64,000 nt of DNA from an uncultured Acidimicrobiia bacterium (GCA_963847455.1 CAWKAG010000034.1:126604-190603), one strand, 5' to 3'; counted from the first letter of the stretch, positions 1-23,941 are shown. Numbers and translations: made by a program. The notes: a model not told the origin generated them from the sequence alone.

Positions 1-77
1 GGAGGAGTAATCGTCGGGCTTCAGTTTACGATTGCAGCGCTGATCATGGACCATCTCGGTGGACCCCGAGGAGGAGA

Positions 78-1227
78 GTGACCGAAGCGACACCCGTCGA
101 CCGGTCGACGGCCCGGAGCGGAGACACCAAACGCATTGGTGTCCTTGCGCTGCTGGTTGTCTTGTTTGCCGTTTCGGTGGTGGCTGCTTTGCGGGTCAAC
201 GAACAGTTCACACCAGACTCGCGGTATTACTCGCGCGATGGCATTCCACTACTCGGGCATGACCGAGGCGGAGGCCCGAGAGGCAACCGTGGAAGCCAAT
301 GAACTCCAGGGTTGGGAGACCCTGCCGACATCGTATCTCTTCGGGTGGGGTTTGGTTCAGCCACGAGTGATCTACCCCGCATTCTCGGCACCATTCGTCA
401 AACTGTTCGGACTGCCCGGAATGCTGGTCGTGCCGGTCCTGTCGATGCTCTTCCTGGTTGTGGCAGCATTTCGCGTGATCGACCGACATTTCGGTATTGC
501 CGCCGCACTTGGAGTTAGCTTGTTGGTCCTTTCGAGCCACTTCGTGTTCTATTGGGGAACGGCAATGCTGACGGAGGGTCCGGCGGCGGCTGTAGGAACC
601 GGGATTTTCCTCACCTTGCCGATTTGGGGTGAGCCTAGGAAGCGGTGGGATCTCCCCATCTGCGTCATTCTGCTGGCCGCCATGGCGTTCACCCGGCAGG
701 CGGCGTTGATCCCTGGGGCTGCGATCGTCGTAGCTGCGATGGGGTACACGGTGGCGTCTCGAAAACTATGGAATCGGTGGAGTCCATTTGCCCTATGGGC
801 GGTCGGAATGACAGGTGGTACCTATCTGTTGCAGGCGTATATCTGGCCGGGCTTTTCGATACGAACCCACTATTTCGACCGCGTTGCAGAGACGACTGAC
901 TTGGCGGAGGCCATTGCCGCCATTCCATCGGTGGCCTGGACGATCTTCGTGCGAGATATGGATCAGTTCATTTTCCGGGACCAAGCCCTGATGGTTTTGC
1001 TGGTCGTGGCTGCAGCGGCGCTAGTCGTTTCGTGGAAGCGGACCGAGGCGCACCTGCTCGCTGGCGCAGTCGGAGCGACGATGCTACTCAACATCCTCAA
1101 CGGAACACCGACCGCCTTCCGTTATGCGATGCCTGGCTTGATATTCTTCCTGGTCGCCGCTGGTTCTACGATCGGCAGCGCCGTGCGACGCGGTCAGCAG
1201 GGGGGCGGTGTAGATCAACATCCCTAG
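78..1227 (+). CDS. Polytopic integral membrane protein of unknown function, possibly a GT-C-like envelope glycosyltransferase or polymerase; the reading frame changes near nt 235
   Basis: The frame from 78 encodes an N-terminus with a TM helix (IGVLALLVVLFAVSVVAAL). The frame from 136 continues with more than 8 hydrophobic helices. The two frames join at about 235, with no stop codon between them. Confidence 0.4.
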
Positions 1228-1276
1228 GTTTCTTTCAACGGATTCGGACACTGCCTGGCTTAATCCGGCGAAGATT

Positions 1277-2294
1277 GTGGCCATTTGCGCCGTGGTGGCG
1301 ATCCATACCTTCGGGTACAACGCAGTCGTCGAGAACGCACGAGCCACCAAACTCGGGTTGGTCTCAATTGGTATCGATGCTGCCTCAGTGTTCTCGGTCC
1401 CGTTGTTTGTGATGATTAGCGGCGCGCTTCTCCTCGATCCCAAGCGGTTCACAGGAGCGACGAGCCTTTATGGGGAAGCGAACTCTCCGGCTCGTCCCCG
1501 CCCTCGTTTTCTGGCATGCATTCTATTTCTTCTTCCGTAAGTTCTACCTCGGCCAGGCGCTGGAGGTAGACGCGTATCTCGTCCAAACGATTGGCGGTCG
1601 CGCCTTCCAGGGCCTGTATTACTTCTGGCTCATTCTGGGCCTCGTTGCGGTTACCCCCATGTTGGCGCCTTGGGTCGCCCAGGCAAAAAAGCGAGATGTA
1701 GCGCTCGCTGGCTTGGCGATGGCTGCAATGCCGGTTTTGACTCTTGCAACCCACGCCCTCCGAGGAAGATCGGAAATCTGGGTGGAAACTGCCTGGACCT
1801 GGTGGATCTTCTACCTCGGCTTCTACCTTCTTGGCTGGGCTCTCCGGGATCTCGTTCTGTCGCGTGGTGCGACATTGTTGGGGCTGCTGGTAGTTGTCGC
1901 CATTGCGGGGCTTGAGACCTTTGCTTGGCGGAACCCTGCTGCGCCGCCCCAGTTGGTGAGATTGGTATCGGGCTATTACTCGCTGGCGACACTTGTCTAT
2001 ACCGGCCTTATCTTCTTGTTGATCCATTCACTGGCGATGTCGAGGCGACCCTTGCACTGGTCAATTAGCGGACGGACGGCCGGAGTGACCCAGAAGCTGG
2101 CTGGCGTCACGTTGGGTGTCTTCGGTGTGCATACGGCCATCATCCTGGTAGTGATCCGGACTGGAGTCCTCGGTGACGGCAACGCCGCTCCGGCATGGGA
2201 ACTCCTCCTCGCTCGCTACGTTCTGGTCGTGCTCGCGGCGTTCGCAATCTCTCTTTCGGTTCAGAGGATTCCGTTTCTCAACCGCGTCGTTTGA
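1277..2294 (+). pseudogene. Acyltransferase family 3 (OafA/YrhL-like O-acyltransferase), split into two overlapping frames
   Basis: The 5' frame (1277-1540) carries acyltransferase_3 N-terminal motifs VVAIHTFGY and VPLFVMISGALLL. The 3' frame (1470-2294) continues with about 8 further TM helices. The two frames overlap by 70 nt, so one indel near 1480-1540 would rejoin them. Confidence 0.65.
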
Positions 2295-2484
2295 TCGGGT
2301 GCAGTCTGGAGCGAGCTCCCTAGTGACACTGAGCCAAGTGCATTCTGGCGGTCGATCCTCCGCGGAGGCGCTGCTCGAGGGCCAGGATGTATAGTTCTCC
2401 GCGGTACTTACGCAAGGCCGCTCGGAGGTCGGATTACACAATGAGAAGCGCATGGCCTAGCTCCTCCGTGGATCCGTCGAACCG

Positions 2485-3759
2485 TTGAACGCCTACCGGA
2501 GGAGGGCCGTGGTGGGTTTATTTCGGCGTCTGGTTCCATCGGCTCGTGGCGACAAACTCTCGAGCGCCCTTGCTCCGTCGACCGAGGGTGAGGCGACTGG
2601 TACCAAACCGCAGGATGTCGACGCGATGGTGACCGACATGCGTGAGCGGCTCGACGTTTGGGTCGCGGAAGCGCGCCAGGCAACAGGGCGAGATGTGGTC
2701 CTGATGTTTTCAATGGAGCACATCTATGACCCGGCGAACCTCGATCGTCCAGCGCAATTGGCGGGGTCCCTACTCGAAGACGACTGCCCGGTGTTCTTCA
2801 ACTTCGACAAATGCGGTTTAGACGAACTCCCGTCGCATCGTCAGCCAGGGTTGATACAAAGTCACACTGACATAACGGCGCGGATCTTGCCGCAGGTTCT
2901 GGAAGCTGACTTCGGCGAGAAGAAAAAGGTGATGGTGATCGGCTCCCCACACGAACTGATGGTGCGGTACATCTCATATGCCGAGCAGCACGGATGGCGG
3001 ATCGCGTATGACGCCTACCAGGATTCGGAGGAGTCGGCTCGACTCAACGCGAACTTGCCATATCAGCTTGAGTACGAATGGTACATCTCAAGAAACGCCC
3101 ATATGGTCTCGGCCGTGTCCGGAGCGCTTGCCCAGAGGCTCGAAGTGATTTCGGGGCGAGAGGTTGCGGTCATACCGAACGCTCCCAGCCGAGGTCTCCT
3201 TCTGAAACCGCCCGCCAACGAAGCTGCTCAGTTTGTGGTTGGTTTCTTCGCAGGCGAGTCGGAGGACCTTACCGATTGGGAGCTTGTTCGGAGATGTGCT
3301 CGACGCTACCCGAATGTGCGGTTTGAGCTCGTCGGTGTTGGCAAAGCGATGGACCCCGAAGTGGCAAACGTCCGTTTGCTCGGACGTTTATCCAGCGACG
3401 AACAATCAGGGGTTATCTCACGATGGGGCGCCGGGATGGTTCCCTTCATATTCAGTCCGGCTTCCGAATGCGTCGATCCTGTCGCGTTGTATGACCTCGT
3501 CGCTTCGGGTCTGTCTGTTGTTACGTCTTACCTTCCGCAAGTACGCGGCCATCCAGGAGTCAAAGTCGCTGAATCTCCCGAGGAGTTCGTCGATTTGGTC
3601 GGCAGCCTCATCGAACAAGGGAACATTCGGCGGGATCCAGGCTCGGCTTGGATGGCTGCCAACAGTTGGACTAGCAGGCGCGGAATGCTCCGAGGCACGC
3701 TCGATCATGCCCCCCATCCGCGGCCAATGTTGGCATTCCTCACCGGCACCGTCCGATGA
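2485..3759 (+). CDS. Putative GT-B fold glycosyltransferase; the start may be the GTG at about 2508, just after a GGAGGA Shine-Dalgarno sequence
   Basis: The C-terminal half shows a GT1/GT4-like pattern (FVVGFFAG...RFELVGVG...GMVPFIFSPASECVDPVALYDLVASGLSVVTS). The stop codon overlaps the next gene's start (ATGA). Confidence 0.45.
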   Translation: MNAYRRRAVVGLFRRLVPSARGDKLSSALAPSTEGEATGTKPQDVDAMVTDMRERLDVWVAEARQATGRDVVLMFSMEHIYDPANLDRPAQLAGSLLEDDCPVFFNFDKCGLDELPSHRQPGLIQSHTDITARILPQVLEADFGEKKKVMVIGSPHELMVRYISYAEQHGWRIAYDAYQDSEESARLNANLPYQLEYEWYISRNAHMVSAVSGALAQRLEVISGREVAVIPNAPSRGLLLKPPANEAAQFVVGFFAGESEDLTDWELVRRCARRYPNVRFELVGVGKAMDPEVANVRLLGRLSSDEQSGVISRWGAGMVPFIFSPASECVDPVALYDLVASGLSVVTSYLPQVRGHPGVKVAESPEEFVDLVGSLIEQGNIRRDPGSAWMAANSWTSRRGMLRGTLDHAPHPRPMLAFLTGTVR

Positions 3760-4823
3760 AACGGAAGCTGCTCTTCGCGTATCGGTTTGGCGTGCTTGGC
3801 GGCGTGGCCACACAACTACTCAATCGATTTGCACAGTTTGCTGGCCGGTTCGACGTTCGAATCCTGTTTGAGCATGACCACGGCGTCGCAGGTCGTTTCC
3901 CGGCCGGGACGGCTATTGCCATCGGAAACTCGGCTGGTCGGGTCGCCCATATGCGGGAGTATGGAGCCGATATCACGGTGATTATCGACGCACCCAACAT
4001 GATCACGGACTGGCACCGGGCCGGCCGCGTTGGGCAGGCGATCTTGGAAGTCCATACAACCACCTCCAACTTCTCCTACTTGGACGAACTCACTGTCGAG
4101 TCCGGGATCAAGGGAATCATCACCGTCTCTGAATATATGGCCCGGATGGTGACGGCAACGCCAATCGGCGGCGGTGTACCGGTGCGCGTTGTGTCAAACT
4201 GCCTGACTGACGGATGGTTTGGACCTTGGCGACCTCCGGCGGAAACCCGGTCGATTCCGTTGGTCTGGGTTGGGAAACTTGATGGCCACAAGCGTGTTCT
4301 ATCCGCGCTTGACGTTGTGGGGCGAGTCCAGATGAGTTTGGCGGGAAACCCGGCGATCACGCCCGTTGTTATTGGTGGCTATTCGGCCGGCTCAGATCGG
4401 GTTCGCCACGTTCTCAGATCGATCCATGATCGATCGACTTTGCGGGACGTGGAATGGATGCCGCGAGTCGACTATTCGCTAATGCCTACCATTCTCCAGA
4501 ACGCCGGCCGTGCGGGCGGCGTCAGCCTGAGTACGACTCGCAACGAATCGTTTGGCATGTCCGTGGCAGAATCGATCGCATCGGGTTGTCGGGTCGCTGC
4601 ACCCTCGGTAGGCGCGTTGCCCGAGATTGTCCCAACGGAGATGCTGTACCCGGAGAACGACCTTGGTGCAGCCGTTGCGTTAACGTGCGACATGCTTCGT
4701 GACCCGGAGCTTCACAGACGAGAGCTGGCCGAGGCGCGTGACACGTTACGGATAACTATGTCTCCTTCTTCGACCTTGTCCCAGTTCAGTAGCGCGCTCA
4801 CCGCCTTCGGACTGGACCACTAG
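3756..4823 (+). CDS. Glycosyltransferase family 4 (GT1 superfamily)
   Basis: It has the canonical E-x7-E region NESFGMSVAESIASGCRVAAPSVGALPEIV. It is translationally coupled to the upstream GT. Confidence 0.75.
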   Translation: MKRKLLFAYRFGVLGGVATQLLNRFAQFAGRFDVRILFEHDHGVAGRFPAGTAIAIGNSAGRVAHMREYGADITVIIDAPNMITDWHRAGRVGQAILEVHTTTSNFSYLDELTVESGIKGIITVSEYMARMVTATPIGGGVPVRVVSNCLTDGWFGPWRPPAETRSIPLVWVGKLDGHKRVLSALDVVGRVQMSLAGNPAITPVVIGGYSAGSDRVRHVLRSIHDRSTLRDVEWMPRVDYSLMPTILQNAGRAGGVSLSTTRNESFGMSVAESIASGCRVAAPSVGALPEIVPTEMLYPENDLGAAVALTCDMLRDPELHRRELAEARDTLRITMSPSSTLSQFSSALTAFGLDH

Positions 4824-4827
4824 AACG

Positions 4828-5898
4828 ATGGCAGGCACGGTTCACATCGTAGGGGCGAGGCCGAATTTTATGAAGGCCGGACCGGTGATCGCGGCATGTC
4901 GAGAGCGCGGGCTTGAGTCGCACCTGGTCCACACCGGCCAGCATTATGACGTACGGATGTCGCAGATCTTCTTTGATGAGCTTGGCTTGCCTGTGCCCGA
5001 CATGAACCTGGGCGTTGGGTCGGGAAGCCACGCTGAACAAACCGCTGCCCTGTTGACTGGACTCGAAGCGGTCTTTCTCAAACTTGAGCCTGATCGAATT
5101 GTTGTGTATGGCGATATCAACTCGACATTGGCCGGTGCGCTTGTGGCGTCCAAAATGCAAATTCCGATCGGGCACGTAGAGGCTGGTCTGAGAAGCTTCG
5201 ACCGATCTATGCCCGAGGAAGTCAACCGGGTGGTTACAGATGCCCTGTCAGATCTGCATTTTGTGACCAGCGAAGAAGCGGTTGGCAATCTTGCCAGGGA
5301 GGGAATTCAGAGCGAAGGGGTCCACTTCGTCGGGAACCCGATGATCGATTCCTTGCTCAGATTTCGTGATTCGTTCGATACCGACGGAGTGCGAACCAGG
5401 TATGGGATTCCCGAGAGATATGCAGTGGCGACGCTCCATCGTCCGGCCAACGTCGACGATCCGCTGACGGCAGCCCGTCTCGTTGCCGGACTGGTGCGAG
5501 CGGCAGCGATCTTGCCGGTCGTCATGCCGCTCCATCCCCGGGGCCGAGCGGTCCTCGAGGAGCAGGGCCTTGGTGTGGTCCCGAACCTGCAGGTCGTCGA
5601 ACCGCTTGGTTATGTCGATTTCATGTCGCTCGTCGCCGGGGCGAGCGTGGTGTTGACCGACTCGGGTGGTATCCAAGAGGAGACCACGATTCTCCGAGTC
5701 CCGTGTCTCACCATGCGGCCAAATACCGAGCGTCCGATCACTGTAGAGCTCGGAACAAATCGGCTGGTCGGATCTGACCCGGATCTTGTTGAGCAGGGGG
5801 TTCTAGACGCTCTGGAACCATCCCGGCCCGTGGATGTCCCGCCGTTGTGGGATGGTCGCGCCGGGCAGAGAATTGCCGACGTCTTGGCGGCAGTCTGA
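4828..5898 (+). CDS. wecB: UDP-N-acetylglucosamine 2-epimerase (non-hydrolysing)
   Basis: The N-terminus HIVGARPNFMKAGPVIAA, the motifs HTGQHYD and DSGGIQEE, and the length (356 aa) all match the WecB/MnaA family. Confidence 0.9.
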   Translation: MAGTVHIVGARPNFMKAGPVIAACRERGLESHLVHTGQHYDVRMSQIFFDELGLPVPDMNLGVGSGSHAEQTAALLTGLEAVFLKLEPDRIVVYGDINSTLAGALVASKMQIPIGHVEAGLRSFDRSMPEEVNRVVTDALSDLHFVTSEEAVGNLAREGIQSEGVHFVGNPMIDSLLRFRDSFDTDGVRTRYGIPERYAVATLHRPANVDDPLTAARLVAGLVRAAAILPVVMPLHPRGRAVLEEQGLGVVPNLQVVEPLGYVDFMSLVAGASVVLTDSGGIQEETTILRVPCLTMRPNTERPITVELGTNRLVGSDPDLVEQGVLDALEPSRPVDVPPLWDGRAGQRIADVLAAV

Positions 5899-5936
5899 AC
5901 CGGAAACCCCCCGTCGCCGCGAAAGCCGGGCCAGTG

Positions 5937-6678
5937 CCTATTTGTTAGCGGCCTGCTGATAGGCGCCAACAACTTCAGCGGCTGGACCGAGGGCTCGGAT
6001 CTGGCCGTTTTCAAGCCAAAGCGCTCGATCGCAGAACTGGGCCACGCTAGCGAGGCTATGAGACACAAAAACGATGTGCCGGACCGCTCAAGGAGGTCTC
6101 GTCATCGCCTTGCATGCTCTTACCACGGAAGGATTCGTCGCCGACCGACAGGATCTCATCGAGCAACAGGATTTCTGGGTCGAGAGCCATGCCAACCGAG
6201 AAGGCGAGTCGCGAGAACATGCCCGTTGAGTACGTTTTGACGGGCCGCTCTATCGCGTCCTCCAGGCCGGCATAGCTGACGATGTCATCAAAGCGGCTGC
6301 TCGATATCTGCGCTTTTCGCATCCCGCCCGCAAGACCTCCGAGGTACACGTTCCTCCGACCGGACAGCTCTGGGTTGAATCCAACACCGAGCTGCAGCAG
6401 GGTCGACGTTGTGCCGTTCGAGCACCGCCTTACCTTCGTCCGGGCGTAGGGTGCCCGGCCAGTACTCGGAGCAGCGTGCTCTTCCCTGCCCCATTCCGAC
6501 CGATTACGCCGAAGGCCTCACCAGGGTCCACGCGAAACGAGACGTCCGTGAGGGCGAGTACCTCGGCGGTCTCGCGGTGGCGCAGGCGGCCCAGGCTTCG
6601 GCGGACGGTCGGCTTTCGGTCGACATATGGTCGGAAGCGGACGCTGACGTTTTCGACCAAGATGGCCGGACGGCTCAC
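5937..6678 (-). pseudogene. ABC transporter ATP-binding protein of the polysaccharide/teichoic-acid exporter type (Wzt/TagH/KpsT-like); at least 3 frame changes are needed to read it
   Basis: Walker A ([16 protein letters not shown]) is in frame 6430-6678. [12 protein letters not shown] is in a second frame. GFNPELSGRRNVYLGG, the signature YSTGMFSRL and Walker B (LLLDEILSVGD) are in frame 6056-6349. The C-terminus (CDRALWLENGQIRALGPAAEVVGAYQQAANK) is in a further frame ending at 5937. Confidence 0.8.
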
Positions 6679-7499
6679 AGGTGCCTCACAATCCGGCTCT
6701 CGTACTTGATGAACGTCCCAACGCCGACCAACCCGACGATGACAGCAGTTATCGCGGATGTAAGAAACAGGCCGGGCTCAAGGGGATCACCCGAGCAGGG
6801 CCGCTCGGTAGACACCAACGATGCTCCACATCGGGTTCAAGAGCATCACTTTCTGGATCGGTCTCGGACAGGTTCTCCATGAACTCGATCGGCCAGATGA
6901 TCGGGCTGAGATAGAGCCAGAGCCTGTTGATGTAGGGCAGGATGTTGTTGATGTCGCGAAACGGAACGGCCAGCCGTGCGGTGAGCGCACTCAGCCCGAG
7001 GTTGAAGACAAGATGGGCAGGAACGATGAAAAGGATGAGCCAGAAATGGTTGTTCAGGTTCGCCGAACCCTCCCGGAATCGCTACGGCGTAGAGGACGAC
7101 CAACGACGCGAGGAAACCCACGCCTGCTTCGATGAGGTTGGCGATGGGGAGAATCAGGCGGGGGAATTTGATGTTGGCAAGCAGTTTCGAGTTCTGGAGG
7201 ATGCTGTTGGCCCCTCCCGTCATGGCCTGACTGGTGAAATGGAAAACGAACATACCTGAGAGCAAGTAACTCAGGTCCCGATCTGACGCGAAGAGGATGC
7301 CAAAGACCAGGTAGTACACGAGGCCCAGGAGCAGTGGGTTGATCACCCACCAGAGGAGCCCCAACGCCGTTGAGGCGTTCCTTGCCTTCAGGTTGCCCAT
7401 CGCCAGATACCAGGCGAATTCGCGGCGGCTCCATAAGCTGCGAAAATAGGTGCTCGTCCGCGCCAAGCGCGATCGGCTTTGTGTGAGGAGGGCAGACAT
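6675..7499 (-). pseudogene. ABC-2 type polysaccharide exporter permease (Wzm/TagG/KpsM-like); at least 2 frame changes
   Basis: The N-terminal 150 aa match an ABC-2 permease (FRSLWSRREFAWYLAMGNLKARN...WWVINPLLL). The frame then degenerates after VLYAVAIPGG. The conserved C-terminus LLNPMWSIVGVYRAALLG and the final [38 protein letters not shown] lie in two other frames. The stop codon overlaps the ATPase GTG start. Confidence 0.7.
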
Positions 7500-7565
7500 A
7501 GCTTGAGCATTGTAGGAGCACGTACCGCTCGAACGCGAAATCGCTTGGGCGAACTGCCCGGCCCG

Positions 7566-8804
7566 TTAGGCCTGGATTACCCGGAGTACCTCGTCTACTC
7601 GATCTGAATACGTTTGCCCTTCGGCTATCCAGGCCGGGCCGCGCTCGGCGGCAGCATCAAGCACCGTCGGGTCCGACAAACCCTGGCTGATCAGATGGTG
7701 TGCTTCGTTGGCGTTCGAGGCGACCTGTACGAGTCCGTGAGGGACGTAGGTGCCAAGGGCGGCGGAAGGTCCGCTCACCACATATGCACCGCACGCCAGG
7801 AGTTCGAAGATCCGCCTCGAGCACATGGTCGTGCTGGCAGTCACGCTGTTGACGTTTAGGGCCACCTTGTAGCGGCGATACATCTCCACGGTTTCGAGAT
7901 ACGTCAGGCGCCCTCGAACGTGCGGTTGGTACTTGGCGGGCCAGGCGAACCGACTGTCGGTGCCTCCAAACCGGTCGAAGATGTCGAGATCGAAAGCGAG
8001 TGCAGGCGCGATGATCAACTCCATCTGAGCGCGGCGGTCGGGGAGTTTGGCGGCGTAGTAGCCGCCTGCGAAAGCCACGCCTTCGGTGCGCTGACTGAGG
8101 GAAGCCGGGGGGTAGTGGAGGCTGGGTTGGGCAGCGAAGGGAAGCAGGCTGACCGGTATTCCTGGAACATGACGTTCATACCGTTCGAGGCTGTCCAGGT
8201 CCACGGTGAATATGTAGTCGAACAGCCGGGCCGTCTCGATGAATATTTCGAAGTTGCTTGGATCTTCCTTGTTCCAGAACACCGTCGGAATGTTGTGTCG
8301 CTTGCACCACCCGACGACCTCTTGAAGGGTCGCCGAGCTGCTGCCGAACCTGGCAAGTTCCCCGGCCCAGCCACCGCCTGCTCCGCTAAAGGCGCTTTCG
8401 ACAAAGAGCATCTCGGGCTGATGCGCTTCCAGATTTGATAGCCAATTCTCTCGGCTCAGGTTAACCATGGACCATTCCGGCCCGAATGTCTGCTCAGTGA
8501 ATTCGTCGACGATCGCCGCGACGCGAACTGATCGTCTCGGGGGAGCCGTCTCAGCATCATCGGGATCAGCCACGGCCGGGCGGTCGTCAGCCGCCGGCTC
8601 CGCATCAGATTTGCGGAAGCGTGATCGGCGTTCACTCCGAGCTGCCTCCAGCCTGTTGCGCAGCGTTTCTCGGTCTGCTTCCAGTTTGCGGATCCGATCT
8701 CGCTGTGCGGCGTTTTTAGCCGCAAGCGCATCGATGTGACTTTGCAGCTGGGCCAAGTATTCGGCTGCACGCTCGGTGGACATGTCCGAGAGGGGATCGC
8801 TCAT
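7566..8804 (-). CDS. CgeB-family glycosyltransferase (DUF3880 + Glyco_trans_1_2) with an N-terminal coiled-coil
   Basis: The N-terminal 80 aa are a heptad-rich coiled coil. VFWNKEDPSNFEIFIETARLFDYIFTVD and the C-terminal FELLACGAYVVS match the CgeB spore-maturation-protein-like family. It ends with an ATG start at 8804. Confidence 0.6.
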   Translation of the reverse strand: MSDPLSDMSTERAAEYLAQLQSHIDALAAKNAAQRDRIRKLEADRETLRNRLEAARSERRSRFRKSDAEPAADDRPAVADPDDAETAPPRRSVRVAAIVDEFTEQTFGPEWSMVNLSRENWLSNLEAHQPEMLFVESAFSGAGGGWAGELARFGSSSATLQEVVGWCKRHNIPTVFWNKEDPSNFEIFIETARLFDYIFTVDLDSLERYERHVPGIPVSLLPFAAQPSLHYPPASLSQRTEGVAFAGGYYAAKLPDRRAQMELIIAPALAFDLDIFDRFGGTDSRFAWPAKYQPHVRGRLTYLETVEMYRRYKVALNVNSVTASTTMCSRRIFELLACGAYVVSGPSAALGTYVPHGLVQVASNANEAHHLISQGLSDPTVLDAAAERGPAWIAEGQTYSDRVDEVLRVIQA

Positions 8805-8887
8805 GGTTGAACAGTGTAGGAACGGAATCGGCGTCGAACGGACTTCGCCTAGGTCAAGCCTTGTGTCTATTGTGCCGATGGGTATTC

Positions 8888-12520: not shown

Positions 12521-12724
12521 GACCGAGCGTGGGAATCGCCCTTACCGGATGGGCCTGGATCTCCGACACCAGCTTGCTCCGGTCGGATTCGTAGGCGGGA
12601 TAATCGATCGGCAGATCGTCAGCCGGGGCTCCACTCGGTAGAGCCACGAGCGCGTCGTTTAGATGGACGTTGTCGCCCCAACCCCGCACCGCCGTGAAAG
12701 CGCGTGTGGCCGTGTCGGCGCTAC

Positions 12725-14046: not shown

Positions 14047-14341
14047 CAGGTGGCGCGGTAGCTCGCAGCTTTCAGATCGATTCGTATGAGTGTGCCCGAC
14101 TCGGTGATTTCGGCTTGCGGCTGGTGAGCAGCAAGGTAGGCATCAAGGGCTAGTCGGTCGGGCGCATGAGCATAGATGTAGCGCCTCGCCGCCAGGAGAA
14201 TAGCCTCCGGGGGAGTGGTGCCGCGAAACGCCACTGCCTCATAGGAGCCAGGACTTGGCGTCGGCGACGTTGTCCCACACTTCTCGTCCGGGCAGCGTCA
14301 ACGCCGTGCCAGGTGCGGTCAGCACTCGCTGCACCTCGACG

Positions 14342-15770
14342 TCACGGTCGATGAAGGACTGCAAGTGGGTCCTCTGCGGGAAGTCGATCGGCGGGCGGTG
14401 GAACCTTTTCGGCGGCTTTGAGACCGGCCATGAGTTCGTCGACCCGGTGGTCATAGAGGTGGGCGCCGGCCACATGGGACCGTGCTTGGTCGACGATCCG
14501 TTGCATGCGATCTTGATCGGCCAGGAGCGACTGGAACTGGTCGACGAAGTCAGTTTCGAGATGTAGGAAGTGTTCACCGGGCGTCAAGATTTGGTCTAAG
14601 CCAGGGATGGGCTGGGTCACCAACAGCGCTCCTGCCCCGATGGCTTCGAGCACGCGCATCGTTATGGGGAAGTGGCGCGTTCCGCCTTCGTTCGGGATGA
14701 TGCGGGCTTGCTCATAGAGCTCAGCCATGCGAGAAGCCGATACGCCCTCCTCAAAAGCAGTCGAAGGTAGGGCAGCTTCAAGGCTGGTCGTTAGGTGGCC
14801 CCGGAACGCGTAGGGCCCGCCTCCCCGAATGTAGGCGCCCACCATTGCGACGTCGTACCGGCGGGCGGCGATTGGCGTTGATCCATCGAAGAGGTCGGGT
14901 GCCATCCCGAACGGGAAGCGCTGGACCGGCTGGCGAAAGAAATGGGCGAGGTGCCACGAGTGCGCCAGGAGGATCAAGTCGGCCCGATATCGGTCGGCGA
15001 GTCGCAGGTTGGCAGCGAGGTGGTGTTCACCGTGATGCGCCCAGAACCCGATCGGGATGGGTGGCGTTGCGCCGCTTACCTGGATCTCCGGGTAGGGGCC
15101 TTCGACGAAGAGAATCGCGTTGGTGTCAGGCGCCAGGGTGTTGAAGTCGACGGCGTCGGTGTATAGGTCGACTGCGACCCCAGCGCGCTTGAGGGCCGCC
15201 TCAAGATACTTGCCGGGGTTGGAGTCGGTCTTGCGGTAGGCCAGAGCGATCCGGGTCCCCGCGTGGCGCCCGGGGGCGGGCCGGTATGGCTCCGGACTGG
15301 CTCTCGGGGGTGTGAAACGGTAATCCGGTCCGGATCGGTCGGCTCGCCGAGGGGGTTGACGGGGCCATGTCGATGAGATCCAGTGGTCCAGCTGGATTCC
15401 ATTGGGGGGCTCTCGCTACGAAGGCAGATGTCTGAGCTGCCGCTTCGGCAGCCACCTGAACCGCTGCTTCGGTGGTCGGCACAATCAATTCTGGATCGGA
15501 CTCGACCGTCCGCCGAACGAGAGCCGAATCGCGCCGTGAGTTGCGTGATATCTGCGTCTGAAGCTTCCTTAACAAACGATCGCGAAGCGAGGTTCCCGGC
15601 GGCTGGTTTGGGGATACGAGTGCCTCGTCGAAGGGCCGATCCAAGTCACCGTTTTGATGGCCGATTCGGACTAACGTGACGTCGTGTCCTGCGCGCGTCA
15701 GCTGTTCAATAAGGACCCGTGCTCGGGGGTCGTTTTGATAGTCGTTGACCGCAAGAACCGTGATCCGCAT
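14342..15770 (-). pseudogene. Second CgeB-like glycosyltransferase: an N-terminal Rossmann-like domain in one frame and DUF3880/Glyco_trans_1_2 in another
   Basis: The 5' frame (15201-15770) is MRITVLAVNDYQNDPRARVLIEQLTRAGHDVTLV. The 3' frame is open from about 15410 to 14342 (TRIALAYRKTDSNPGKYLEAALKRAGVAVDLY...RVLEAIGAGALLVTQP). It has no ATG/GTG/TTG start before 14977. The frames switch near 15250. Confidence 0.45.
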
Positions 15771-15824
15771 GGAGGAGCATGGTACCCGGGCTGACGAGAG
15801 GAGTCCCCGTCGAGCGATGCGCCG

Positions 15825-16857
15825 CTAGCTGAGTGCCCTGCGCAAGAACGCCGCGATCTGGCCTCTGGTCAGCGTTCCCTCGGGGCAGAAGCGATCGTTG
15901 CTCGGCGGGTTACATCCCTTGGTGATACCGGATACGCCCAGCGCGTTGATGTCCGTCTGATGCACCGAGTTGGTGTCGTCACCGAACTGATCGGCGACGT
16001 TGGTTGACAGGCCGAGGGCCCGCACGAAGAAACTTGCCATTTGCCCACGGGTGAGCGTCTGCTGTTCACAGAAGAAGGTGTTGGCGGGCGGATTACACCC
16101 GAGAGTGATACCGGCCTCAGCGACGGCGTTGATGTTCGCCTCGTGGGGTGATCCGTCGTCGTCGGTGAAGAAATCTGTGCCGGTGCTCGGAAGGTCAAGC
16201 GCCAATGCCATCATGGTCGCCATTTCACCACGGGTAACCGGCCGATTCGGGCAATACGAGCTGGAATCGCAGCCAAGGGCGATGCCACTCGAGACCAGCC
16301 AGGCGATGTCGTCGGCGAAGACGGTGTTGGATGCGTCGTTGGCGGAACTCAGGAGGGAGAGGCTGGTCAGTGGTTCGGCGTCGGCCGCACTGCCCCGGGC
16401 TTTCATGAAGATGACCGTGATGAAGGTCTGTCCGTTGCTCGGCGGTCTTGGTCGAGACCCCGATGTGGGACCAGTCGCCGAGGATGTTGGCCCGATGGCC
16501 CGGCGAGTCCATAAAGGCATTGTGGAGGACCGGGATGTTCGGGCCCATCCCGACGTTTTCGCCAAGGCTCGACCATCCACTGCTTACGATCTTGCTGAGG
16601 TCGGCCGTATGGAAGATGGTTCCCCTGGCGACCTGACGGGCAGTCTGGACCGATGCATCGTCCTCGAGATCCCAGTGACGGGTGAGACCGGGCAGGCCGT
16701 TCGCCGCTCGTTCTCCGTTGATGAGGTCGATCATGTCGCCGTCCTGAATCGGGGATGCGACCGCAGGGAGTGGTGTCGGGATGATCGAAAGCGCGAGGAA
16801 GGCGGTCAGCGCAACCGCCGTCAGGTAGATTCCCCTACGCCCAAAGGAAAACTTCAT
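15825..16857 (-). pseudogene. Secreted CAP/SCP (YkwD-like) domain protein with four C-terminal SLH-like repeats; one frame change near 16430
   Basis: The signal peptide and CAP motifs (HWDLEDDASVQTARQ, GENVGMGPN, SPGHRANIL) are in frame 16225-16857. Four GCNPP/GCDSS-type repeats are in frame 15825-16580. Confidence 0.65.
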
Positions 16858-16933
16858 AGAGTGGTTATCGGTCCGGCGGCCGGAATACTTAAGGCTCAGG
16901 TAGGAACAATCTCACCGATAGTGTTGACCATCA

Positions 16934-18580
16934 TGTTTCGATTTACGACAGGAATCACGACTGCTCTAGCGATCCTTGCCTTGACGGCACTTGTGGCAGG
17001 TGCCGTCCCGCCCGGTGGCACGTTCATCGATGACGACGGCAACGTCCACGAGGCCAACATTGAGGCGCTCGCGTGCTGCTGGCATTACTCGCGGATGTAA
17101 TCCGCCAGTTGGTGATCGTTTCTGTCCCGATGGGACCGTGACCCGGGGCGAAATGGCGGCATTCTTGTCCCGGGCGCTCGGGCTGACCGAGCGAGCGTCT
17201 GATCCGTTCGGCGATGATGACGGTACGTTGTTTGAGGCCGACATCGAACGGATTGCGGCGGCCGGTATCACTCGCGGTTGTAATCCGCCCGCCAACGACC
17301 AGTTTTGTCCGACCCGGCCGGTCACGAGAGCCGAGATGGCAGCGTTTCTGGTGCGCGCCTATGGCTATAGCGACCGGGCCGACGGACGGTTCACGGACGA
17401 CGACGGCTCCATCTTCGAAGCAGATATTGAGCGCCTGGCAGCGGCCGGCGTCACCTTGGGATGTAACCCACCGGTGAACGATCGCTACTGCCCGTCCAAG
17501 CGGGTGAGGCGAGATGAAATGGCTAGCTTCCTCGTCCGGGCCGAAGGCTTGACCCCGATCCCGGTCCCGCCCCGGTTGACGCCAACGTTGGACGCCCTCC
17601 CGTTTTCTTTCGACGCACCGATCCAGGTGACCGGCCCGCCAGGGGACGGTCGGGTTTTTGTGGTCGAACGATCTGGCAAGGTCCGGGTCATCAGCGACGG
17701 CAAACTGCTTACCGACCCTTTGATAGATCTAACGGGCATGGTTATCCAGGGCGGCGAACGGGGACTGCTTGGCCTGGCTTTTCACCCCGACTTCGCTACC
17801 AACGGACTGGTTTACGTCTCGTACTCCGCGGAGACCTCGTCACTCTCGGCCGACCACGCTTCGGTGGTGGAAGAGTTCAAGGTGTCCGGTGACCAGGTCG
17901 GTCCCAGCTCGGGTCGGGTTGTTTTTACGACCTTGCAGCCTTATGCCAATCACAACGGCGGCATGATCATGTTCGGTCCCGACGGGTACCTGTATCTGGG
18001 TCTTGGCGACGGCGGCTCGGCTTTTGATCCCGACCGAAACGGTCAGAACGCCAAGACTGCCCTTGGCTCGATGGTCCGCATCGACACGGTCAACACCACG
18101 TCGAGTAATTGGGCGATCGGCCTGCGCAACCCCTGGCGGTGGTGGATTGATGGATCCGACATGTATATCGCCGATGTCGGACAAGGTTCGCGCGAGGAGA
18201 TCTCGGTGGTCTCGACGACGGATACCGGTTTGAATCTCGGCTGGGTGCGATTCGAGGGCAGCCAGTGCACCGGGCTCGGCAGCTGCAGCACCAGCGGCCT
18301 GACGTTTCCCGTTTTGGAATATACCCACGCTGAGGGTTGCTCCATCACCGGAGGGGTGGTGTACCGGGGTGATCTGACCCAATTGAATGGACACTTCCTC
18401 TACGGCGATTACTGCTCTGGCTGGATTCGCTCGATCCGGGTCGTCGGAGGGTCAGTTGTTGCCGAGGGTGACCTCTCTACGCTCGGGTCAAGCTTTGGAC
18501 TCGTGTCTTTTGGTCAGGACGGTCTTGGGAATACTTACGTCATCCGCGGCGGAACTGTCTACGAACTCGTCGGGCGATGA
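16934..18580 (+). pseudogene. Secreted protein with three SLH-like repeats fused to a glucose/sorbosone-dehydrogenase-like (PQQ-dependent) beta-propeller; one frame change near 17075
   Basis: The signal peptide MFRFTTGITTALAILALTALVAGA and the first half-repeat are in the frame ending at 17100. The remainder is in frame 16991-18580, with GSDH motifs (GDGRVFVVERSGKVRVI, GGERGLLGLAFHPDF, YANHNGGMIMFGPDGYLYLGLGDGGS). Confidence 0.7.
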
Positions 18581-18654
18581 TGCCGACATTCGGATTGATG
18601 GCAATAAGTTTGTACAGTGACTCTGTCCTGGGCGGGCGGAATCCGACCTGAGGA

Positions 18655-20548
18655 GTTGTGTTGAAACACAGAAGGATCCTTCTCCTTTTTGTCATGGTCG
18701 TGAGCACGCTGGTTCCGGCGATTCCTGCGCAAGCTCAGACCTATCACCCCAACGGTGACGTTCACGGGTGGTGGGTACGGGCACGCCATCGGGATGAGTC
18801 AGTACGGCGCCAATGCCATGGCTTCCGAGGGTATGACCACGGCAGACATCATCAACTACTACTACACAAACGTTGCGACCGTGAGCCACACCGCTCTCTA
18901 CGAATCGCCACATCCGCTGAGTTCTGCAAACCCGAACATCTGGGTCGGGCTGGCTCAGGATGTGAACTCGATCACGTTTTCGGTCCCGGCTGACGCCAGG
19001 CGGGCCGGTAGATCTGTGTCAAGCGAACGACGGCGGCTTGCCGTGCCCCCGCGAGGAGGCAATCCCTCAGCCAGGTGATGTGTGGGAGTTGCGACGTGCC
19101 GAAGGGGTGACCAACAAATGTCGAATTCCGTCGGATCAGCCCGACCGCGACAGACGTTTACGACAGGAGACTGCCGAGCCAGCGCCACGCTGGGGTGGGT
19201 CGGGGCAGTGCCGAATACATCAATGTGGACGGTACGGATTACCGGCATGGAACGTTGCGCATGCGTCAGGGGACGTCCAGGTAACAACCGGCCAATTCCA
19301 CGTTTCGCTCGAGCTTCCGATCGAGGAGTACTTGCTCGGATTGCGTGAGGTGCCGTTGAGTTGGCCAAACGCGGCACTGGAGGCCCAGGTTGTCACCGGC
19401 CGCACGTACGCCCTTGAGAAATTCAGCCGTTTCTACGACGCGACTCGACAACCGGGAACTACGACTTCATCAAGAACTTCCGGCGGTCCTATTGCTACTG
19501 CCATGTCCTTGACAGCACCCTTGATCAGAACTACCGAGGCATGGACAACGAGCAACTCAACGGCGACTCGTATCCGTCTTGGGTTCTGGCGATCGCGAGT
19601 ACGTCAGTCCGACGTGATTGCCTATCAAGGCGCGTCTGATCCAGGCGTTCTATTCGTCGTCGACGGGTGGCAACACTGAGGATAGCGAAGACGTCTTTGT
19701 GGCGGCGCTTCCGTACTCCAGGTCGGTTCCCGATCCCTGGTCATTGACCTCGGCGAATCCGAAGGCAGCGTGGACGAACACTGTCACAGCGACGAAAGAT
19801 CGCTTCGGTGTACGGATTCTCTGAGATCAGCAATGTCACGTTGGTGAACCCGGCTCCGAATGCGTATATGACCATCACCGGCACCAAGAACGGATCCCAG
19901 GTCACAGAGAGCGTGAGCATCGCCAAGAAGTACGCACAGTTGGGGCTGTCGGCCCCGTCGGTCTCGGGGTTGTCCTATGACCCTTACGGTGGCGAGAGTC
20001 CGTATGCGTTTACCGATATCAGTAACTCGGTTCATTGGCAGGACATCAACGAGATTGCCGAGCGAGGCATAACGCTCGGATGCAACCCGCCGTCCAACAC
20101 ATTGTTCTGTCCAACCCGTGAGGTGACCAGGGGACAGATGGCCGCGTTCCTGACTCGCACGCTCGGGTTGGTCGAGCGGGCACCAGACCCGTTCACCGAC
20201 GACGACGGCACGTTGTTTGAGGCAGACATCGAACGGATCGCCGCCGCTGGTATAACCCTGGGCTGTAATCCGCCGGCCAACGACCGCTTCTGTCCCGATC
20301 GTTTTGTTACCCGCGCCCAGATGGCGGCGTTTCTCAGCCGGGCGTACGAACTTGTTGAGCGGGCCCCTGATCCGTTCGTCGACGATGACGGCTTGATCTT
20401 CGAAGCGGACATCGAACGGTTGGCCGCCGCCGGTATCACGCTTGGCTGTAATCCTCCCGCCAATGACCGGTTCTGTCCCAACAACATCGTCCTTCGACAA
20501 CAGATGGCGTCATTCCTGATCAGAGCCATCAATTACGAGGGCGGCTAG
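18655..20548 (+). pseudogene. SpoIID/LytB-family domain protein with three C-terminal SLH-like repeats; at least 3 frame changes and an unusual motif order
   Basis: It has a signal peptide (MLKHRRILLLFVMVVSTLVPAIPAQA) followed by GGGYGHAIGMSQYGA...INYYY (18755-18900). EEYLLGLREVPLSWPNAALEAQVVTGRTYAL lies at 19320-19440 and FYSSSTGGNTEDSEDVF...PYSRSVPDPW at 19640-19740. The frame from 19808 carries three GCNPP repeats. Confidence 0.5.
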
Positions 20549-20573
20549 CGACACACCGCTAGCATCCGCCTTC

Positions 20574-21860
20574 GTGGACAACCCTGTTGAGTTTTTTGAA
20601 GGAAATAGTTGGACTTGTGGCGTCGTCGGCCTCGGATACGTTGGTCTGCCGCTAGCTCTGACCGCCGTTTCCAGAGGCCATGCGGCGATAGGCTTCGATA
20701 CGTCAGAAGACCGGGTCCGTCGCCTCGGTGCCGCCTCATCGCCGATCGACGACGTCTCAGATGCGGATCTGGCGGCTGCGTTAGAAGCCGGCCTGTCGGT
20801 AACGGGCGATGCCGCCGATCTCAAGCTTGCCGACGCCATTTTTATCTGTGTGCCTTCGCCGCTCGGCCGGAATCGCCAACCGGACATGTCCTACATTCAA
20901 ACTGCGGCGACCACTGTGGCGAGGATCGCCCGACCCGGGCAGCTGATTTCGCTCGAATCGACCACCTATCCGGGTACCACCGATGACATCCTGGTAACCG
21001 CGCTCGCCGATGTCGGCTTGGAAGTTGATCGGGACGTCTACGTCGCCTTCTCTCCGGAACGAGTGTCGCCAGGCGACGAACTCAAAACTGCCGAGATCCC
21101 CAAGGTCGTCGGCGGAGTCAGCGCTTTGTCGACCGCGGTGGCAACGGCGGCCTACTCCAAGTTGGTGCCCAACGTGCACGCCGTTTCTGACGCCAAGACG
21201 GCGGAGATGGCCAAGCTGCTCGAAAACACCTACCGGGCTGTCAACATCGGCCTGATCAACGAGATGGCCCAGCTCGCTCACGAGATCGACATCGATATCT
21301 GGGAAGTCATCGAGGCGGCCGCGACGAAGCCATTCGGGTTTCAAGCGTTCTTTCCGGGCCCGGGAGTGGGTGGGCACTGTATCCCGCTCGACCCTCAGTT
21401 CCTGGCCTGGCGCGCCAAGGAAGCGAACTTCACCACCCGTTTCATCGATACGGCCGAGCAAGTCAACGAAGGCATGCCGGCTTGGACCGCCCGACGAGTC
21501 GGGTCGATGCTGAACAAACGTGGGTTGCCGATTTTTGGGACCCGCATCCTCGGTGTGGGGATTTCCTACAAGCCGGACATCGCCGACGATCGTGAATCGG
21601 CGTCAGCCCGGGTCCTGGTTGAGTTGAGGAATCAGGGCGCCGAAATCGAGGTGTACGATCCGCTGGTGCCACCGGACCGGATTCGTCGGCACGGGTTTGA
21701 ACCGTCCACATCCTTCGACGGCTACTCGGCCGCCTTGATCTTGACCGACCACCAGGGCATCGATTACAACGCCATCTCGGCTTCGGTGCCGGTCGTCTTT
21801 GACACCCGGAATGCCTATCGGCGGCGCGGTATCGAGGTCGACAACGTAGAAGTGCTGTGA
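20574..21860 (+). CDS. Nucleotide-sugar dehydrogenase (UDP-glucose/GDP-mannose dehydrogenase family); a UDP-ManNAc or UDP-GlcNAc 6-dehydrogenase is plausible
   Basis: The Rossmann motif VVGLGYVGLP, the catalytic region GFQAFFPGPGVGGHCIPLDP and the length (428 aa) fit the family. It lies in a WecB-containing cluster. Confidence 0.85.
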   Translation: MDNPVEFFEGNSWTCGVVGLGYVGLPLALTAVSRGHAAIGFDTSEDRVRRLGAASSPIDDVSDADLAAALEAGLSVTGDAADLKLADAIFICVPSPLGRNRQPDMSYIQTAATTVARIARPGQLISLESTTYPGTTDDILVTALADVGLEVDRDVYVAFSPERVSPGDELKTAEIPKVVGGVSALSTAVATAAYSKLVPNVHAVSDAKTAEMAKLLENTYRAVNIGLINEMAQLAHEIDIDIWEVIEAAATKPFGFQAFFPGPGVGGHCIPLDPQFLAWRAKEANFTTRFIDTAEQVNEGMPAWTARRVGSMLNKRGLPIFGTRILGVGISYKPDIADDRESASARVLVELRNQGAEIEVYDPLVPPDRIRRHGFEPSTSFDGYSAALILTDHQGIDYNAISASVPVVFDTRNAYRRRGIEVDNVEVL

Positions 21861-22913
21861 TCGCCGGGGTCTTCTCGGTGGTGCATCATGCCGACGATGC
21901 CCGAATTCGCGAAAAGCTGATCCCTACGCTGGCTACCGATTTCTCCGTCGAATATCATGCCAGAACTCCGGCTCCGGATCAGATCGAGGGCTTCACCTGG
22001 TATCCATTTCGAGGACCACGGATCATCAGGAATCTGTCGCTCCTGCGCCGGCTACTGAGTCGGAAACTTGACGTGGCTGTGCTGGTCGACCCGGAAACGT
22101 TTTTGGCCGGCATCCTGGCGAGTCGTCGCACCAGGGTCGTGTTTGATATTCACGAGAACGTTCCTGCCCAGATCGCCACGAAGAACGTTCCGTTCAAAAA
22201 GATCCTTCGCCGGGTGGCGGCTTCGATCCTGCGGGCGGCGGAACGGGCCGGGACGGTGGTTCTCGCAGAGCCGGGCTATGCCGAGCTCTTCAGCCAGTCC
22301 CACCCGGTGTTCGAGAATTTTCCCCGATGGGAAGCGATGCCGTCCATGGCGCCAAGTGATGGCTCGGTCATCTACGTCGGCGACATCACCGAGCAACGAG
22401 GGGCCCTCCATCTCGCCGAGGCAGTCGCCGGCACGGGCAAGCATCTCGTAATGGTGGGCCGTTGTTCTCCCGAGTTGGCGACCCGGATCGAATCAGTCGT
22501 GCGCAATGGCGGGGCGACGGTGGAGCTGACCGGGCGCCTGCCCTGGGCGAGCAGCGATGGTTCGCCTCGCTTCTGCTGCGGTCGCCGTTTCACCGTTGAC
22601 CGACACGCCCAATTATCGACACTCCCTGCCAACCAAGGTTCTGGAATACCTCGGTCTGGGCATTCCGGTCGTGGCGACCAATCTGCCAGGAACGACCGAG
22701 GTGCTGACCGGCCGCCCGGGAGTCACCCTGGTCGAGTCAGGCGATGTCCCAGCGCTCCGCCAGGCGATTATTGCTGCCAGCCATGCCGAGGTTCGCGAAT
22801 CGGCCCAGCGTTCGTCGAATATCGTCCGATCCGAGTTCGAGTGGCCGACGGATCGAGTGAGGAGCTTCTATTTGGCGTTGGTTGGCGACCCCGGTCTCAG
22901 TCCTGACAGGTAA
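21857..22913 (+). pseudogene. Glycosyltransferase family 4; one frame change near 22560
   Basis: The N-domain is in frame 21857-22560. The GT1 C-terminal motif (LPTKVLEYLGLGIPVVATNLPGTTEVL) is in frame 22557-22913. Confidence 0.7.
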
Positions 22914-23842
22914 CCCAGGCCCCAGCTGATATGCATAACAGCGATGGCCACCGGCATCATCAGCGCAGAGGCTTTTGGCGATTTGCCGAAAGTAACGGCC
23001 GTCGTGGTCCCGAGGGCCACCAGATAAGCGACCGGGATCACGAGTGCTGATCGCCACCAGTTGCTGAACGCAAGCCCAACGGAGATCATCAGCCCGAGCA
23101 CAAAGAGGGGCGCGACTAGTTGACGGAGACGGATGGATTCGGGATGGCGCCGGTGAACGATCCGCTTCCAGGCTCCGTATTGAAAGTACTGCTTGGCGAG
23201 ACCTCCCAGGGAAGCGCGCGGTCGGTACTCGACGGCCAGGCGGGGGTCAAAGTACACCAGACCGCCGTTCTGGCGGAGGCGGATGTTGAGTTCGTAGTCC
23301 TGGTTCCGGATCAGTGTTTCGTCGAACAGTCCGGCGTCGACCAAGGCCTGCCTGTCGAATACACCCAGATAGACGGTATCGGCCGGTCCCGCCTCACCGC
23401 CGTAATGGAACTTGGCGTCACCAACTCCGAGGCGACTGGTCATCGCCATGGCGATGGCGGTCTGTAATAGCCCCGTGCCGGTGGCCCGCTGAATCCCACC
23501 GACGTTGACCGCTCTGGTGTCGGCCATGATCTGTTCGGAGATCGCTACGTAGTCGGGGGGAAGCACCGAGTGGGCATCGCAGCGCACGACAATGTCACCG
23601 CCGGCCGCTCTGATAGCGGCGTTCAGTGCCGCCGGGGTGGTGGTGGCCGGGTTATCGACGATCCGGATTCGGTCATCGTCGAATTCTTCGATGGACCGGC
23701 GGGTCCCGTCGGTACTCATCCCGTCGGCCACAATGATTTCGGTGATATTCGGATAGGTTTGGTCCAAGACCGACGCGATGGCGTGGCGAATCGCCTCTTG
23801 TTCGTTCCGGACTGGAATGATCACCGTCACTGTGGGCTGCAT
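22868..23842 (-). CDS. Glycosyltransferase family 2 with C-terminal TM helices (polyprenyl-phosphate sugar synthase / GtrB-like)
   Basis: It has TVIIPVRNEQEAI...DQTY...IIVADGMSTDGT and a DAH motif. There are two C-terminal hydrophobic helices. The 3' end overlaps the GT4 gene by 45 nt, convergently. Confidence 0.8.
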   Translation of the reverse strand: MQPTVTVIIPVRNEQEAIRHAIASVLDQTYPNITEIIVADGMSTDGTRRSIEEFDDDRIRIVDNPATTTPAALNAAIRAAGGDIVVRCDAHSVLPPDYVAISEQIMADTRAVNVGGIQRATGTGLLQTAIAMAMTSRLGVGDAKFHYGGEAGPADTVYLGVFDRQALVDAGLFDETLIRNQDYELNIRLRQNGGLVYFDPRLAVEYRPRASLGGLAKQYFQYGAWKRIVHRRHPESIRLRQLVAPLFVLGLMISVGLAFSNWWRSALVIPVAYLVALGTTTAVTFGKSPKASALMMPVAIAVMHISWGLGYLSGLRPGSPTNAK

Positions 23843-23941
23843 CGGGCCATTATGCCTGGATCGATTGGCCGGGCACCCGTATGTCAGACTGCCTAGACCA
23901 ACCGGCCGCGGTCAAAGTCGAGATGCCTATCATTTGAAGCC

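Follow-up and report, generated by a model that had tools for sequence, protein, structure and literature searches.

Clustered frameshifts in an envelope glycan island of an uncultured Acidimicrobiia bacterium are best explained as consensus errors

A 64,000-nucleotide stretch of DNA from an uncultured Acidimicrobiia bacterium (GCA_963847455.1, CAWKAG010000034.1:126604-190603), analysed here as a whole and referred to as the window, opens with an island of genes for cell-envelope glycan synthesis and wall-anchored proteins whose reading frames are broken at many positions. Frameshift-aware alignment to intact relatives verified 31 frame-breaking insertions or deletions (indels) in 11 of the 18 island genes. 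Once these indels are corrected, the 11 genes are free of nonsense codons and evolve under the same constraint as their intact neighbors, and the assembly of the closest relative carries the same kind of change at different positions. We conclude that the frame breaks are very probably consensus errors, made during assembly or polishing of a metagenome-assembled contig, and not dead genes. Most likely, the organism itself carries intact, functional copies of these genes.

The window has a GC content of about 60% and contains no N. The island occupies positions 1-23,900. Its enzymes comprise an acyltransferase, several GT1, GT2, GT4, and CgeB-like glycosyltransferases, a UDP-GlcNAc 2-epimerase, and a UDP-glucose dehydrogenase, together with a Wzm/Wzt-type ABC exporter and an 854-residue fusion of a GT2 glycosyltransferase with a polysaccharide pyruvyl transferase (GT2-pyruvyl transferase). 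Four island proteins, namely an M23 peptidase, a CAP-domain protein, a glucose/sorbosone dehydrogenase-like protein (GSDH), and a SpoIID protein, carry triple SLH-like repeats. The other 40 kb contain housekeeping genes, among them pepA, thiF, two ABC exporters, gltB, sufBDCSU, and fumC. Rfam and tRNA scans found no RNA genes in the window.

Frame switches were called with a seven-state Viterbi model, whose codon usage was learnt from the housekeeping genes of the window. This replaced a filter of open reading frames (ORFs) on GC content at third codon positions, which discriminated poorly at 60% GC. At almost every position listed in a first-pass annotation of the window, the model switches frame on the same strand with no intergenic gap. 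In a blastx comparison of the window with ORFs from 80 related loci, single homologues match consecutive segments in different frames. Because homologues continue across them, the same-strand switches are true frameshifts inside single genes.

The events were located by base-level nucleotide alignments to relatives and by a custom frameshift-aware protein-to-DNA alignment, with a plus sign denoting an insertion in the window relative to intact relatives. The relatives include L081 (82% nucleotide identity, covering 5.9-8.9 kb of the window), L082 (82%, 8.8-15.6 kb), L169 (83%), L086 (73%), L085/L166 (84%), and L165, L167, and L168 (83-85%, 16.7-38 kb). The closest relative, at 90-93% nucleotide identity, is represented by L170, L171, and L172, which derive from contigs contig_62336 and contig_48456 of ENA sample ERZ25039508 and cover 1-6.0 kb and 20.6-60.3 kb of the window. 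Among GTDB representative genomes, the best hit reaches an amino acid identity of only 66%.

The verified events are strongly concentrated in the island. Four lie outside it, all of them +1 insertions and confined to two genes (29937 and 29956 in one, 60057 and about 60226 in the other). The comparison of 31 events in 23.9 kb with four in 40.1 kb gives a rate ratio of 13 (binomial p = 4.8e-10). The background outside the island, about 0.1 frameshift per kb, is the same in the window and in the assembly of the closest relative. Within the island the events are clumped, with a variance-to-mean ratio of 3.9 in 1-kb bins that none of 20,000 permutations reaches (calculated on an earlier list of 33 sites). 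Hot patches are found at 6-7 kb and 18.7-19.8 kb, and a dense zone between 6073 and 19795 accounts for 28 of the 31 island events.

The concentration had been recognized in the first-pass annotation, and it is borne out here, with the correction that both counts given then (about 18 in the island and about one elsewhere) were too low. About 16-17 of the 19 positions listed at that stage fall within about 100 nucleotides of a verified event. No event is found at 6690 or 12450; at 6690 the stop of the ABC permease gene normally overlaps the start of the ABC ATPase gene. Absent from the list were 10069, 12004, 14259, 14361, and most of the 11 SpoIID events. The earlier statement that LonN alone is affected outside the island is slightly inaccurate, as a gene for a 312-residue protein at 59862-60814 has two further frameshifts. 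The long housekeeping genes are intact, as had been stated: full-length Pfam matches and an absence of frameshifts relative to relatives were obtained for gltB, both ABC exporters, sufB/D/C/S, pepA, and others. Three further candidates were rejected. Those at 23882 and 29077, derived from L165, were dropped since the closer relative L172 has the shorter gene starts of the window, and the pair at 6299/6313 (+1/+2) amounts to one in-frame codon insertion in the protein-level alignment and is not frame-breaking.

The frameshifts are present in the deposited assembly. Three aberrant products are public proteins from one contig of 255,991 bp, with lengths of 154 residues (29609-30073), 189 residues (15201-15770), and 600 residues (a read-through at 9674-11476). 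This rules out frameshifts introduced artificially into the sequence. The intact proteins of the window have a single occurrence in the public collection, on this same contig, held by both NCBI and ENA.

If the frameshifts were real inactivating mutations, the lineage would be losing a secondary-cell-wall-polymer and SLH-anchoring system, and with it an S-layer-like envelope, as the first-pass annotation had proposed as one of two explanations. The 31 indels do disrupt the frame of 11 genes relative to intact orthologs, as in pseudogenes. They lie in one functional island while housekeeping genes are spared, and surface-glycan loci are often lost or replaced. The disrupted state is also derived, since all relatives have intact orthologs: the genes are unbroken in every short-read relative (L081, L082, L165-L169, L083, and L086), and the GT2-pyruvyl transferase and SpoIID families have dozens of full-length homologues. 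Decaying clusters of surface-structure pseudogenes, for example in host-restricted pathogens, likewise consist of adjoining frameshifted genes of one class with intact counterparts in relatives. Unlike those clusters, the window shows no nonsense mutations, no relaxed ratio of nonsynonymous to synonymous substitution rates (dN/dS), no deletion bias, and no larger deletions or insertion-sequence elements.

The absence of nonsense codons is informative, as the 11 corrected genes comprise 4,832 codons and contain none. A random substitution would produce a stop in about 3% of cases, and 31 neutral indels, at 5-10 substitutions per indel, predict about 5-10 nonsense mutations; the probability of observing none under neutral decay is below 0.01. 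In agreement with this, dN/dS relative to relatives is 0.05-0.16 for the broken genes and 0.03-0.18 for the intact ones. This comparison, one of the checks suggested in the first-pass annotation, thus reveals no relaxation. For both genes of the ABC exporter, which together have seven frameshifts in 1.5 kb, the values are 0.05-0.06, compared with 0.13 for the adjoining intact glycosyltransferase.

Strictly conserved positions are likewise preserved, with no excess of replacements even in the gene with 11 frameshifts. The corrected GT2-pyruvyl transferase has window-unique replacements at two of 289 sites that are invariant in its other homologues. The corrected SpoIID protein has such replacements at four of 277 sites, fewer than any other sequence in its alignment. 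Across genes, frameshift density shows no trend with divergence, except in the hypervariable catalytic half of SpoIID.

The spectrum of the indels also argues against decay. The island carries 27 insertions and four deletions, nearly all of one base and the largest of two. This is the opposite of the deletional indel bias for which bacterial pseudogenes are known, and which Mira, Ochman and Moran reportedly described in 2001. Furthermore, seven island genes are untouched, including one SLH protein and the epimerase, and the same single-base insertions break SufS, UDP-glucose dehydrogenase, and the epimerase in the assembly of the relative. Relaxed selection, accumulation of nonsense codons, and a deletional bias are thus all lacking, and we consider pseudogenization with loss of an S-layer-like envelope improbable.

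The frameshifts of the closest relative provide an independent view of the same process. They are found at window-equivalent positions 816, 3641, 4309, and 5386 in L170, 20890 and 21038 in L172, and 51066 and 54940 in L171. These positions differ from those of the window, and seven of the eight are +1 insertions. The event at 816 breaks the membrane protein that in the window carries its own frameshift at 233. The event at 3641 fuses the gene for a 424-residue protein with the next one, and those at 4309 and 5386 truncate the GT1 glycosyltransferase and the epimerase; all three genes are intact in the window. Both L172 events fall in the UDP-glucose dehydrogenase, and a gene for a 376-residue protein is also among those broken in L170-L172. 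The comparison with orthologs that the first-pass annotation had recommended separates two groups, the short-read relatives, in which the orthologs are intact, and L170-L172, which carry frameshifts at other positions.

The event at 54940 splits the SufS cysteine desulfurase of the Fe-S assembly operon. As a broken SufS is not biologically credible, at least one of the two assemblies demonstrably contains changes of this class that are errors of assembly. The events of the relative are enriched in the island as well (six in 9.3 kb compared with two in 35 kb, p = 0.0016). In the +1 signature, in the background rate of non-island genes (about 0.1 per kb), and in the enrichment of the island, the window thus matches the relative. 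The contigs of the relative end at window-equivalent position 5989 and resume at 20571 (contig_48456), bracketing the dense zone. If both genomes came from one sample, reads of the sister population could have contaminated the consensus of the window.

The island has the properties of a strain-variable region. Its gene content is mosaic between close relatives (82-93% nucleotide identity), at a conserved position with syntenic flanks. L081 has a methyltransferase and a GT4 glycosyltransferase at the position of the epimerase. In L082 and L169, a GT2 glycosyltransferase and rml genes take the place of a CgeB-like glycosyltransferase and the ABC exporter of the window. The points at which L081, L082, and L169 diverge from the window are 5.9 kb and 8.8 kb. 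SpoIID is hypervariable in its catalytic half, with a best database match of 81% identity compared with 96% for the neighboring dehydrogenase. The contigs of at least four other relatives (L081, L082, L085/L166, and L169) verifiably end inside the island, and those of L086, L165, and L167 probably do so as well.

As in flexible islands known from metagenomes, the locus is a cluster of glycosyltransferase, exporter, and wall-protein genes with variable content, in which the contigs of relatives end. Unlike a typical flexible island, most of its genes are shared with the relatives that cover it, at an identity similar to that of housekeeping genes. Flexible genomic islands recruit few metagenomic reads (PMC10872708). 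Single extra, and occasionally missing, bases would be called where reads are thin or mixed from diverged strains. A contig carried through the envelope glycan island by few or mixed reads would then keep such single-base errors in its consensus. The second explanation of the first-pass annotation, an artefact at a variable surface locus, is supported indirectly, as the relative shows the same errors, contigs break there, and gene content is mosaic.

Several features are those expected of long-read assemblies. The breaks extend to housekeeping genes, their positions differ between independent assemblies, and the small indels lie in conserved coding sequence without substitution damage. In long-read genomes and metagenome-assembled genomes that are fragmented by indels, single-base changes likewise split conserved and even essential genes. 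Elsewhere this fragmentation depends on coverage (PMC9262707), and related assemblies are broken at different positions, as here. Nanopore assemblies are near-finished only at about 40-fold coverage, below which indels fragment gene calls (PMC9262707). Soil and sediment samples have yielded metagenome-assembled genomes built with Flye and Medaka from Nanopore reads only, in which contigs are called 'contig_N' (PMC12313526), and the contig names of the closest relative are of this Flye style.

A number of points weigh against consensus error. Both the low or mixed coverage in the island as a proximate cause and the long-read origin (Flye/Medaka type) of the source assembly are inferred. Residual Nanopore errors are classically deletions in homopolymers (PMC9262707); the insertions in the window lie outside homopolymers and are not of this textbook type. 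This spectrum makes us less sure of a particular platform but leaves the case for an artefact unaffected. The 13-fold concentration in the island is not generally described for long-read errors, and a model of low coverage over the whole island does not by itself predict patchiness at the scale of genes, where error-free stretches of 2.5-4.6 kb stand beside 1-kb patches with 1% indels. Finally, any of the six genes with a single event could carry a real recent frameshift.

Uniform random sequencing error along the contig is very unlikely. The non-island genes do contain such frameshifts, at the background rate, and clustering could in principle arise by chance or because island genes are easier to recognize. 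The contrast between 31 and four events contradicts such uniformity. Ascertainment is unbiased, as base-level comparison with relatives covered the non-island region from 24 to 60.3 kb and full-length Pfam matches served as a further check. The judgement of the first-pass annotation that random error is unlikely to be the sole cause is upheld.

Equally little weight falls to a reading in which the insertions are real and very recent. They would represent a burst confined to the glycan island, also present in the sister population, and either no substitutions would have followed yet or the genes would be expressed via a correction step. Localized insertion-prone mutation, or inactivation throughout the population under pressure from phages, could be behind such a burst. 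Real indels of this kind would constitute a very unusual mutational pattern, and the evidence is strongly against this.

The sequence context of the sites bears on the remaining alternatives. The longest homopolymer within 3 nucleotides of any site is at most 3 bases, the sites are if anything shifted to shorter runs than the background, and the island contains no homopolymer of 7 or more bases. A k-mer analysis found no shared motif that is significant at the sites after correction for the 511 k-mers tested. The strongest candidates were CGAGC/GCTCG, within 7 nucleotides of eight of 34 indel sites in positions 1-30000 compared with 1.65 expected (uncorrected p = 1.8e-4), and CGAG, at 14 sites compared with six expected. 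A motif error of the methylation type was rejected, as CGAG and CGAGC fail the multiple-test correction and the error sites of the relative lack the motif. An apparent excess of CCGG was discarded as well, this k-mer not being among the enriched ones. Several insertions lie immediately 5' of CTCG.

Phase variation by slipped-strand mispairing at simple repeats, as in the contingency loci of Campylobacter and Neisseria glycan synthesis, would act on surface-glycan genes and mostly by one-base changes, as seen here. Its probability is negligible, as no indel lies in a homopolymer longer than 3 bases or in a short tandem repeat, and with up to 11 events per gene no single switch restores function.

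Expression despite the DNA frameshifts, by programmed frameshifting, transcriptional slippage, or RNA editing, can be dismissed with similar assurance. The coding signal and conservation are perfectly kept on both sides of every shift, and four of the five multi-hit island genes return to their original frame (P ~0.045). This return is not significant when the genes outside the island are included (four of seven, P ~0.17), and we attribute it to chance. Recoding would be expected at a single conserved site per gene, whereas up to 11 sites per gene are found, with no common slippery motif, and relatives encode the same proteins unshifted. To our knowledge, no bacterial system corrects 31 scattered sites.

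The individual genes are as follows. The first island gene encodes a membrane protein of about 383 residues without a Pfam match (78-1227, plus strand), with +1 at 233. L170, 92.8% identical, lacks this insertion, and after correction the proteins of the window and L170 are 97% identical. The Acyl_transf_3 acyltransferase (1292-2294, plus strand; 333 residues in the relative) has +1 at 1461, and its Pfam match begins at profile position 66 in the ORF at 1416-2294. The gene is intact in L170 (10001-11002), and the corrected copy of the window is 96.7% identical at the amino acid level, with a dN/dS of 0.10. Three intact genes follow on the plus strand (2485-5898), encoding the 424-residue protein, a GT1 glycosyltransferase (3756-4823), and the UDP-GlcNAc 2-epimerase (4828-5898). 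The epimerase has a full-length Pfam match in the window, and the broken copy is that of L170.

Both exporter genes lie on the minus strand. The Wzt/TagH-like ABC-transporter ATPase (5941-6678, 244 residues) contains four events (+1 at 6456 and 6422, +2 at 6102, and -1 at 6073). Its ortholog is intact in L081, and the corrected gene is 89-90% identical at the amino acid level, with a dN/dS of 0.05 and no stops. The Wzm/TagG-like ABC-2 permease (6678-7499, 273 residues) has +1 insertions at 7073, 6862, and 6792; after correction it is 91% identical, with a dN/dS of 0.06 and no stops. The next two genes (7566-10057), for a CgeB-like glycosyltransferase (7566-8804, minus strand) and the M23 peptidase with SLH repeats (8807-10057, plus strand), are intact and show no indels relative to L081, L082, or L169.

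The GT4 glycosyltransferase (10057-11476, minus strand, 473 residues) has +1 at 10069, a few codons before its stop. The insertion opens a 600-residue ORF at 9674-11476 on the minus strand, which extends for about 380 nucleotides along the opposite strand of the M23-SLH gene. The protein has 473 residues in relatives that are at least 90% identical, and 600 in the window. This extended protein is already in the public collection, so that the error has propagated into databases.

The GT2-pyruvyl transferase (11476-14046, minus strand, 854 residues) has -1 at 13438 and 13006 and +1 at 12363 and 12004, and its PS_pyruv_trans Pfam match is divided between two ORFs. The 120 homologues listed have lengths of about 720-930 residues, most of them 850-880, and none is split. 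A GT2 domain, a middle region, and a polysaccharide pyruvyl transferase domain form a widespread architecture of conserved length, which among the listed homologues comes chiefly from Acidimicrobiia and Actinomycetota metagenomes and in few cases bears a functional name. The adjacent CgeB-like glycosyltransferase (14049-15770, minus strand, about 570 residues) has +1 insertions at 15293, 14361, and 14259. These events were obtained with two guide proteins, from L082 and L083, and the dN/dS is 0.10.

The CAP-domain protein with three SLH-like repeats (15834-16857, minus strand, about 341 residues) has +1 at 16437. Its CAP and SLH Pfam matches lie in two overlapping ORFs in different frames, and alignment to L086 confirmed the frameshift. 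The SLH-GSDH protein (16934-18580, plus strand, 548 residues) has +1 at 17073; the corrected protein is 91% identical to that of L165, with a dN/dS of 0.06. A 366-residue ORF without a Pfam match (16000-17100, plus strand), which lies opposite the CAP-SLH gene, is almost certainly spurious, as is typical of antisense frames in high-GC DNA. Its overlap with the actual beginning of the GSDH-SLH gene, upstream of the frameshift at 17073, is limited to the final ~170 nucleotides.

The SpoIID/LytB-SLH protein (18655-20548, plus strand, about 626 residues) is the most heavily affected, with +1 at 18745, 18998, 19122, 19147, 19190, 19209, 19604, 19632, and 19795, -1 at 19268, and +2 at 19450. The 11 frameshifts are confined to the variable catalytic half, and the SLH repeats are spared. 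Three guide proteins (from L086 and L165, and P0303) yield the identical 11 events, with no internal stops. The closest ~50 homologues are full-length, at about 620-680 residues, apart from a few partial entries. It is followed on the plus strand by the UDP-glucose/GDP-mannose dehydrogenase (20574-21860), which is intact in the window, and by a GT1 glycosyltransferase (21857-22910, 344-351 residues) with +1 at 22545.

Outside the island, the LON_substr_bdg-domain protein (29609-30225, plus strand, 204 residues), the LonN gene of the first-pass annotation, has +1 at 29937 and 29956 and is intact, at 204 residues, in four relatives. The 312-residue protein (59862-60814, minus strand), which has a Pro/Thr/Ala-rich linker, has +1 at 60057 and at about 60226. 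Natural length variation is seen in two other places, in a protein of 189-197 residues (36301-36891) and in the N-terminal region of a PQQ-like beta-propeller (31570-31650). Compared with relatives, both carry several in-frame indels of 6-27 nucleotides, multiples of three, in contrast to the single bases of the island.

The four wall proteins (8807-10057, 15834-16857, 16934-18580, and 18655-20548) each have three copies of a repeat of about 60 residues. Its consensus is roughly DDDGxxFExDIExxAAAGITxGCNPPxNDxFCPxxxVTRxxMAAFLxRA, with a conserved Cys pair, and Pfam matches it weakly as SLH. Repeat copies of different genes are 70-75% identical at the DNA level (for example, 17.0-17.5 kb compared with 20.0-20.5 kb). 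These SLH-like repeats and the GT2-pyruvyl transferase, taken together, suggest that Acidimicrobiia anchor SLH proteins to a wall polymer that is pyruvylated.

The annotation of this locus should be read with caution. The 11 affected island genes will be called as at least 25 fragments or as fused or extended ORFs, the 600-residue 'GT4' among them. Indel-fragmented gene calls are what the IDEEL score measures and what proovframe addresses. Frameshift errors in metagenome assemblies can be uneven, as shown by the 11-13-fold pile-up in the glycan island of two related assemblies. Such uneven errors would bias pseudogene counts, pangenome analyses, and gene-loss analyses towards biologically attractive loci. 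For the lineage studied here, a loss of the S-layer-type envelope deduced from pseudogenes would be wrong.

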